NCBI RefSeq assembly: GCF_030013205.1
Contig: NZ_CP122648.1
Length of the DNA: 64,000 nt
From: Escherichia coli
GTDB taxonomy: Bacteria; Pseudomonadota; Gammaproteobacteria; Enterobacterales; Enterobacteriaceae
Strand: one strand, 5' to 3'
Shown one piece after another: positions 24,436 to 25,794 of this stretch (position 1 is the stretch's first letter; the number at the start of each line of letters is the position of its first letter). Made by a program: the position numbers and the translations under genes. Below the pieces are notes generated by a model. It made no database searches. It was not told where the DNA came from and was given only the letters and a program-made list of their open reading frames with translations.

Positions 24436-25794
24436 ATGGAACAATATGATCAAATTGGCGCAAGACTGGACCGCTTGCCTTTGGCCCGGTTTCATTATCG
24501 TATATTTGGTATTATAAGCTTTAGTCTGTTATTAACGGGTTTTTTGAGTTATTCAGGCAATGTTGTTTTAGCAAAGCTGGTAAGCAATGGATGGTCAAAT
24601 AATTTCCTCAATGCCGCCTTTACCTCGGCATTAATGTTTGGTTATTTCATCGGCTCTCTTACCGGTGGGTTCATCGGTGATTATTTTGGGCGGCGCAGGG
24701 CTTTTCGCATAAATCTTCTCATCGTCGGTATTGCGGCAACAGGGGCCGCTTTTGTCCCTGATATGTACTGGCTCATCTTCTTTCGCTTCCTGATGGGCAC
24801 AGGAATGGGGGCGCTGATTATGGTTGGCTATGCTTCGTTTACGGAGTTTATCCCCGCGACGGTGCGTGGAAAATGGTCCGCGCGGCTCTCATTTGTCGGT
24901 AACTGCTCGCCCATGTTGTCTGCGGCGATAGGCGTGGTGGTTATCGCTTTTTTTAGTTGGCGGATAATGTTTCTGCTGGGTGGTATTGGCATACTGTTAG
25001 CCTGGTTTCTCTCAGGTAAATACTTTATTGAGTCGCCTCGATGGTTGGCGGGGAAAGGACAAATCGCAGGTGCAGAAAGCCAACTTCGTGAAGTAGAGCA
25101 GCAAATTGAAAGAGAGAAGAGTGTTCGTTTACCCCCGCTTACTTTGAATCAGAGCAACAGCAAGGCTAACGTAATCAATGGTACTTTCTGGCTGCTGTTT
25201 AAAGGGGAAATGTTACGACGTACATTAGTCGCGATTACTGTTTTAATTGCAATGAACATTTCACTTTATACCATCACCGTATGGATACCGACCATATTTG
25301 TTAACTCCGGCATTGATGTTGATAAATCAATATTAATGACTGCTGTTATTATGATTGGCGCTCCGGTAGGAATATTTATTGCGGCATTAATTATTGATCA
25401 TTTTCCTCGTTGATTATTTGGCTCCGCCTTACTTATTATTATTGCCGTGTTAGGCTATATCTATTCAATTCAGACTACAGAGTGGGCGATTTTAATCTAT
25501 GGCCTGGTGATGATCTTCTTTTTATACATGTATGTTTGCTTCGCGTCGGCGGTTTATATCCCGGAGCTTTGGCCAACGCATTTACGCCTGCGCGGTTCAG
25601 GTTTCGTTAATGCCGTCGGACGGATCGTCGCGGTCTTCACGCCTTATGGCGTTGCGGCACTATTAACGCATTATGGGTCAATCACGGTGTTTATAGTGCT
25701 TGGCGTGATGTTAGTGCTCTGTGCGCTGGTTCTCTCCATTTTTGGCATCGAAACGCGGAAGGTGTCATTGGAAGAGATTTCTGAGGTGAATTAA
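24436..25794 (+). pseudogene. ydjE: MFS transporter gene ydjE interrupted by an in-frame TGA at 25411-25413
   Basis: ORF 24436..25413 (325 aa) and ORF 25447..25794 lie in the same frame, separated by a single TGA; 325+1+126 = 452 codons, the length I recall for YdjE; paralogue YdjK is continuous across the aligned position (IPRK). Confidence 0.7.

Follow-up and report, generated by a model that had tools for sequence, protein, structure and literature searches.

YdjE of Escherichia coli K-12 (b1769, 452 amino acids (aa); TCDB 2.A.1.1.92) is an orphan transporter of the sugar-porter type within the major facilitator superfamily (MFS). Two products of the same gene cluster, YdjH and YdjI, are described in the summary given by PMC9602453 as acting on long-chain uronates such as L-glycero-L-galacto-octuluronate; the same paper reports the ydj operon to be far more frequent in some phylogroups than in others. 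As for YdjE itself, metabolomics suggested that it exports acetophenone and 3-phenyllactate, which stand as candidate substrates (PMC10971958), and the K-12 ydjE knock-out alters the export of both compounds and the sensitivity to ornidazole (PMC10971958, PMC9405208). The present work deals with the ydjE gene at positions 24436-25794 (plus strand) of a 64,000-nucleotide stretch of E. coli DNA (assembly GCF_030013205.1, contig NZ_CP122648.1), hereafter the window, in which an initial annotation made from the sequence had noticed an in-frame TGA. This is the same gene as that of K-12, with the same position, length, frame and Pfam families, but its codon 326 is TGA where K-12 has CGA, and only residues 1-325 are translated.

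Two other kinds of described systems offer a comparison. The first are the lineage-specific nonsense pseudogenes of host-adapted or pathogenic enterobacterial clones, which share with this locus a single transition without frameshift, intact relatives, an allele found in one clone only and a hit on an accessory function in metabolism or transport; the window gene differs from that class in being very young, with a remnant free of secondary mutations, and there is nothing unusual in it. The second is the split lactose permease LacY, likewise an MFS protein cut close to a cytoplasmic loop, whereas the second ydjE fragment lacks a ribosome-binding site, would start inside a transmembrane helix (TM9) and would miss 12 residues, so that functional complementation is not expected. 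Altogether, we consider with a probability of roughly 0.93 that ydjE is here a young, lineage-specific null pseudogene produced by one CGA-to-TGA change, most simply a neutral loss.

Around the stop the window reads ATT GAT CAT TTT CCT CGT TGA TTA TTT GGC, and when 24436-25797 is translated in one frame, only one internal stop appears (...AALIIDHFPR*LFGSALLIIIAVLGYIYS..., asterisk for stop) before the C-terminal end ...EEISEVN*. As the initial annotation had pointed out, two open reading frames (ORFs) at 24436..25413 (325 aa, ATG start) and 25447..25794 (115 aa, GTG start) lie in phase (25447-24436 = 1011 = 337x3) and are split by the TGA at 25411-25413 (plus strand). Its statement that both together make up exactly 452 codons was right only for the span: the 1359 nucleotides (nt) of 24436-25794 correspond to 452 codons plus TAA, the length of ydjE annotated as intact in other genomes, while the two ORFs hold 325 + 115 = 440 codons and the rest is the TGA and the 11 codons before the GTG. 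A chance arrangement of ORFs is ruled out because full-length homology to MFS transporters runs on both sides of the stop. The gene also occupies the orthologous position, as the last one of ydjLKJIHGFE, with ydjF on one side and the convergent pncA on the other. The nonsense mutation in ydjE at 25411-25413 is thus real, and sequence, translation, Pfam matches and the RefSeq annotation by the Prokaryotic Genome Annotation Pipeline (PGAP) coincide in making the gene a pseudogene.

The ancestral state of the mutated codon follows from the closest alleles. A megablast search found ydjE in 4,328 of 5,426 complete E. coli genomes, most of them with 95-99% identity to the window gene at the DNA level. 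In fourteen genomes the 1362 bases used as query (24436-25797) were matched with 100% identity, and the next-closest genes, with 99.9% identity, were those of EC556, EC571 and EC581, all from pigs in Japan. The sole difference of the EC556 gene is a C at 25411, which restores CGA (Arg326), and the more distant allele of strain 7/2 likewise carries C at this position. The comparison with other E. coli ydjE genes that the initial annotation had called for gave CGA or Arg at codon 326 in the three intact alleles compared base- or residue-wise (EC556, strain 7/2 and P0018), while other E. coli forms and the one E. albertii member compared (P0006) read ...DHFPRRLFGS..., again with Arg at 326. Since the nearest and the other alleles carry C or Arg, the T at 25411 is derived, and a single C-to-T transition turned CGA (Arg326) into TGA, the very change that had been put forward as an example of how the stop arose.

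The T allele has a narrow distribution. A 71-mer around the site matched perfectly in exactly 14 genomes, whereas the stretch is held by 4,303; the idea that reference ydjE genes might also end at this position therefore failed. The same 14 genomes, and none besides, were recovered among the 5,426 with a 31-mer centred on the T, for which a megablast seed is possible only with the T present. The carriers are W13-16 and P15-25 from France, K_EC180 from South Korea and eleven strains labelled 'ETEC', for three of which the records were opened and gave Belgium and the Netherlands; the listed host of all 14 is pig, swine or wild boar. W13-16 and P15-25 were sequenced with PacBio and belong to the O139:H1 ST1 edema-disease clone (PMC8798679). 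In five of the five carrier records opened, PGAP gives ydjE pseudogene status and notes an 'internal stop'. Beyond complete genomes, a large protein collection records 69 contigs with precisely this 325-aa product, 79 with the product of the 115-aa ORF and 85 with the restored allele of 452 aa, and a contig index has the 325-aa product in 90 blocks, which include Logan assemblies of single sequencing runs (e.g. SRR22895616).

Comparison of longer stretches shows how recent the event is. A 50-kb comparison counted 5 single-nucleotide polymorphisms (SNPs) between the window and the carrier W13-16, against 9 SNPs plus 1 indel between the window and the non-carrier EC556, the T/C at 25411 included in the latter. 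Over 25 kb, an identity of about 100% to the window was found only in 17 genomes, namely the 14 carriers plus EC556, EC571 and EC581, the next value being 99.6%. These few SNPs and the group of 17 genomes indicate that the mutation arose in one clone after its split from EC556-like relatives. The untranslated remnant is still 100% identical in all 14 carriers, with no secondary decay, and the pseudogene is young because all of them are identical over the 1362 bases; the view of a recent nonsense mutation without frameshift is borne out by these identical carriers and by the one-base difference. The T allele is thus confined to one clone from pigs and wild boar, which is O139:H1 ST1 where strains have been typed. 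In the same 50-kb comparison, the window differs alike from W13-16 and EC556 at 6168, 38762 and 49180, so these three SNPs are private to its sub-branch among the genomes compared.

The consequences for the protein can be read from the restored sequence, which matches the Pfam families Sugar_tr over residues 55-450 (E = 1.4e-36) and MFS_1 over residues 28-403 (E = 5.4e-36), and whose nearest solved relatives are SLC22 transporters and GlcP. No NCBIfam equivalog reached its cut-off for the restored YdjE, which fits an orphan transporter. Codons 321-326 (25396..25413, plus strand) encode D-H-F-P-R-R, the last position being now the stop, in the cytoplasmic loop between TM8 and TM9; it is an instance of D-R/K-x-G-R-K/R, which we take to be the C-domain copy of MFS motif A, with Arg326 as its last residue, and it aligns with ...INSLGRR... 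of human OAT1. An alignment of 92 sequences, made of 90 full-length representatives drawn from 1.84 billion proteins together with YdjE and YdjK, contains D321 in 69 of them, R325 in 91, and at position 326 either K (47) or R (41), that is 88 of the 92, with other residues in four and Cys in none.

A second view of the same loop is offered by the paralogue YdjK (18186-19565), which shares 44% identity with YdjE along its full length and has no break at the aligned site (...MDKIPRKTMGVGLL...), as the initial annotation had noticed, with K opposite the stop. Its loop, D-K-I-P-R-K (...DKIPRKTMG...) against D-H-F-P-R-R in YdjE, has the same motif. Within the window YdjK is intact whereas YdjE is truncated, and the former may cover part of the transport function.

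An AlphaFold2 model of restored YdjE built on the 92-sequence alignment is confident (predicted local distance difference test (pLDDT) 93.9, predicted template modelling score (pTM) 0.92) and shows 12 long helices plus a cytoplasmic linker, with the two six-helix bundles of the fold. Up to the stop the modelled helices span residues 18-50, 56-84, 86-104, 110-138, 141-172, 176-196, 257-290 (TM7) and 295-319 (TM8), followed by a loop at 320-324 and then by TM9 (325-344), TM10 (349-377), TM11 (381-413) and TM12 (415-436). The stop is therefore predicted to fall in the first turn of TM9 and to remove 127 residues comprising TM9-TM12, four of the six helices of the C-domain, in agreement with the earlier suggestion of a 325-aa product without the last transmembrane helices. 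The part still translated (24436..25410, plus strand, 325 residues) would keep an N-terminal helix, TM1-TM6 and thus the N-domain, the cytoplasmic helical linker, TM7 and TM8, and end after the latter; the untranslated remnant (25414..25791, plus strand, codons 327-452) would correspond to TM9-TM12 and the C-terminal helix. MFS transporters work through a two-bundle rocker-switch architecture, and because this architecture needs the lost helices the fragment is probably unable to transport. From this established architecture we infer that truncated YdjE is non-functional, which would make it a null allele, and the 325-aa fragment is likely degraded.

The history that best accommodates these data would begin with the C-to-T change at 25411 inside the clone from pigs and wild boar, after its split from relatives with the intact allele. 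Translation would then end at the cytoplasmic end of TM8, within the D-x-x-G-R-R/K loop motif, leaving a TM1-TM8 product that could not build a two-lobed rocker-switch transporter, and the resulting null allele would have persisted because the gene is accessory and dispensable and its loss neutral or nearly so, or by hitch-hiking in a clonal expansion. Neutral loss is the simplest account because ydjE is missing from about 20% of complete E. coli genomes and because the paralogue ydjK is intact. Other truncated forms of ydjE also exist, such as a 275-aa one on 21 contigs, and ydjE is a dispensable accessory gene.

Three considerations weigh against the pseudogene by neutral loss. First, the absence of a functional product comes from reasoning on the architecture of the family. 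Second, UGA is the leakiest stop codon, and traces of full-length protein with a non-basic residue at 326 are possible. Third, the allele has persisted in a clade that has spread internationally, as could also be expected under positive selection, and the data fit selection as well as drift or hitch-hiking.

In this regard, the loss of YdjE might have been positively selected in a pig-adapted pathogen, for example by dropping the uptake or export of a costly compound. Besides the international spread of the clade that carries the allele, the conservation of the rest of the operon in an intact state and the phenotypes of the K-12 knock-out mentioned above speak in its favour. On the other hand, the evidence points to one event in one clone, for which hitch-hiking in a clonal expansion is an equally good explanation; no further hit of independent origin was found at codon 326; and the sister group, in which the allele is intact, occurs about as often, with 85 contigs against 69. 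We therefore regard selection for the loss as unlikely.

A quite different possibility is that the permease survives in two pieces, the 325-aa N-terminal fragment assembling with a C-terminal fragment translated from the GTG at 25447, either by reinitiation or from a promoter created by the mutation. Split MFS permeases such as LacY can complement when they are cut in loops, and the GTG, which is codon 338, is in frame, 34 nt past the stop and the first ATG, GTG or TTG downstream of it. Against this stands the lack of Shine-Dalgarno pairing before the GTG (+2.8 kcal/mol versus -5.9 at the native start). None of the in-frame ATG or GTG codons within 250 nt after the stop had an anti-Shine-Dalgarno pairing better than -1.5 kcal/mol, and values near or above the native one occurred only at poor starts (ATC 25495, -5.1; ATC 25558, -5.7) or within the last eight codons of ydjE (TTG 25768, -7.0; ATT 25777, -6.8). 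Moreover, the ORF at 25447..25794 (plus strand, 115 codons from its GTG), a mechanical product of ORF calling inside the remnant, begins in the middle of TM9 (325-344) in the model, and a fragment starting there would go without 12 residues, among them the conserved motif and one half of a helix; split LacY is inactive when the cut lies within a helix. Two collaborating fragments are accordingly very improbable.

The promoter invoked in that scheme deserves separate consideration. The C-to-T change turns TCGATT into TTGATT (25410-25415), and a TATTAT lies 18 nt downstream (25434-25439), the pair, as -35 and -10 elements, giving a sigma-70-like score of 9/12 with an expected start about 7 nt further downstream, that is, about at the GTG at 25447, a coincidence of positions that also counted in favour of the two fragments. 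In its most elaborate form, the mutation would have created a promoter for a leaderless transcript starting at this GTG, from which a small membrane protein of four helices (TM10-12 and part of TM9) would be made and selected in the edema-disease clone, a chain of events to which we give very little credit; a milder variant of it is that the loss of YdjE may itself be adaptive in the pig gut. Shuffled sequence would be expected to hold 3.2 matches of this kind and the region held 2, so their density is no higher than chance, and the site is accordingly treated as a coincidence. Besides, translation of leaderless messengers from GUG is inefficient, which again goes against the two-fragment permease.

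It could also be asked whether the UGA is recoded, by selenocysteine insertion or programmed readthrough, and a full-length transporter is still made. UGA is indeed the selenocysteine codon as well as the leakiest stop of E. coli, and selD lies 4.6 kb away, a proximity judged to be a coincidence of the map. However, no selenocysteine insertion sequence (SECIS) or other Rfam family appeared near the stop even at E <= 10, a scan which returned only irrelevant sub-threshold matches (naRNA4, of the repetitive extragenic palindromic (REP) type, at 25784-25850, one microRNA model and one snoRNA model), and the 71 nt around and after the stop (25405-25475) fold no better than shuffles (z = 0.26). With flanks that match those of the CGA allele, the mutated gene has evolved no recoding signal. 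The two features expected of a selenoprotein were looked for, and neither a SECIS hairpin directly 3' of the UGA nor Cys or Sec in homologues was seen: at position 326 the homologues have K or R, and Cys or Sec never among the 92 aligned. The stop is followed by U, and termination in E. coli is efficient in the context UGAU, while misreading by the near-cognate Trp would displace a basic residue kept in 96% of homologues. A nearby suppressor tRNA was rejected too, there being no tRNA gene anywhere in the window. Recoding is thus extremely unlikely.

Finally, the fallback offered by the initial annotation, a sequencing or assembly error in a genome that truly has CGA, could appeal to the single base that separates the window from the nearest intact allele and to the probable homopolymer error that K_EC180, of the same genome set, has in ansA, but it is rejected with a practically negligible probability, as the T is a substitution and not a homopolymer indel and recurs in 14 genomes that were finished independently, by different laboratories, on different platforms and in four countries, and in many independent assemblies from reads, in line with the 69 contigs and 90 index blocks of the 325-aa product.

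Upstream of ydjE, the genes ydjL-ydjK-ydjJ-ydjI-ydjH-ydjG-ydjF (17083..24319, plus strand) are all intact according to their ORFs and to the RefSeq annotation of the near-identical region of W13-16, which shows no pseudogene flags. Downstream, the next gene is pncA (25887..26528, minus strand; ORF list and RefSeq), and because it is convergent with ydjE the stop has no polar effect. Within the cluster, a second change was seen in ydjJ at codon 346 of its 347 (site 20617), with G/A between the clade of the window and EC556, on one of the two branches; the YdjJ accessions of the two records differ (WP_063086372.1 versus WP_000798095.1). The intergenic region between ydjE and pncA contains a REP-like palindrome at 25784-25860 (plus strand; ctggcctacaat...attgtaggccag), which matches Rfam naRNA4 weakly, with 30 bits against a gathering threshold of 59.5.

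Further along the window, ansA (26539-27555, minus strand) has at site 27108 a run of six A in the window and in W13-16, both with an intact 338-aa product, and of five A in K_EC180 (NZ_CP062203), where the gene is annotated as 'frameshifted'; the shorter run is probably an error of homopolymer assembly in that record rather than another pseudogene of the clone. At about 42485, ynjB (minus strand) has an extra G in EC556 and is annotated there as 'frameshifted', being intact in the window and in W13-16, which could be a true reciprocal pseudogene or an assembly error. An IS3-family transposase of IS1397, with its programmed frameshift, occupies about 33516-34864 (plus strand) between topB and gdhA, and the element is found at the same place also in distant genomes of the 25-kb comparison.

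The pseudogene status of this ydjE was already known, as RefSeq flags the 'internal stop', and what we describe is ordinary gene loss that reveals no new mechanism; its value is that of a lineage marker and a natural null allele. By its single base, position 25411 cleanly distinguishes the T sub-lineage from its closest relatives with intact ydjE, and this marker could be used in typing. Moreover, the carriers are natural ydjE-null strains in which the rest of the ydj cluster is intact, and they could help to find out which of YdjE and YdjK takes up the substrate of the ydj pathway.
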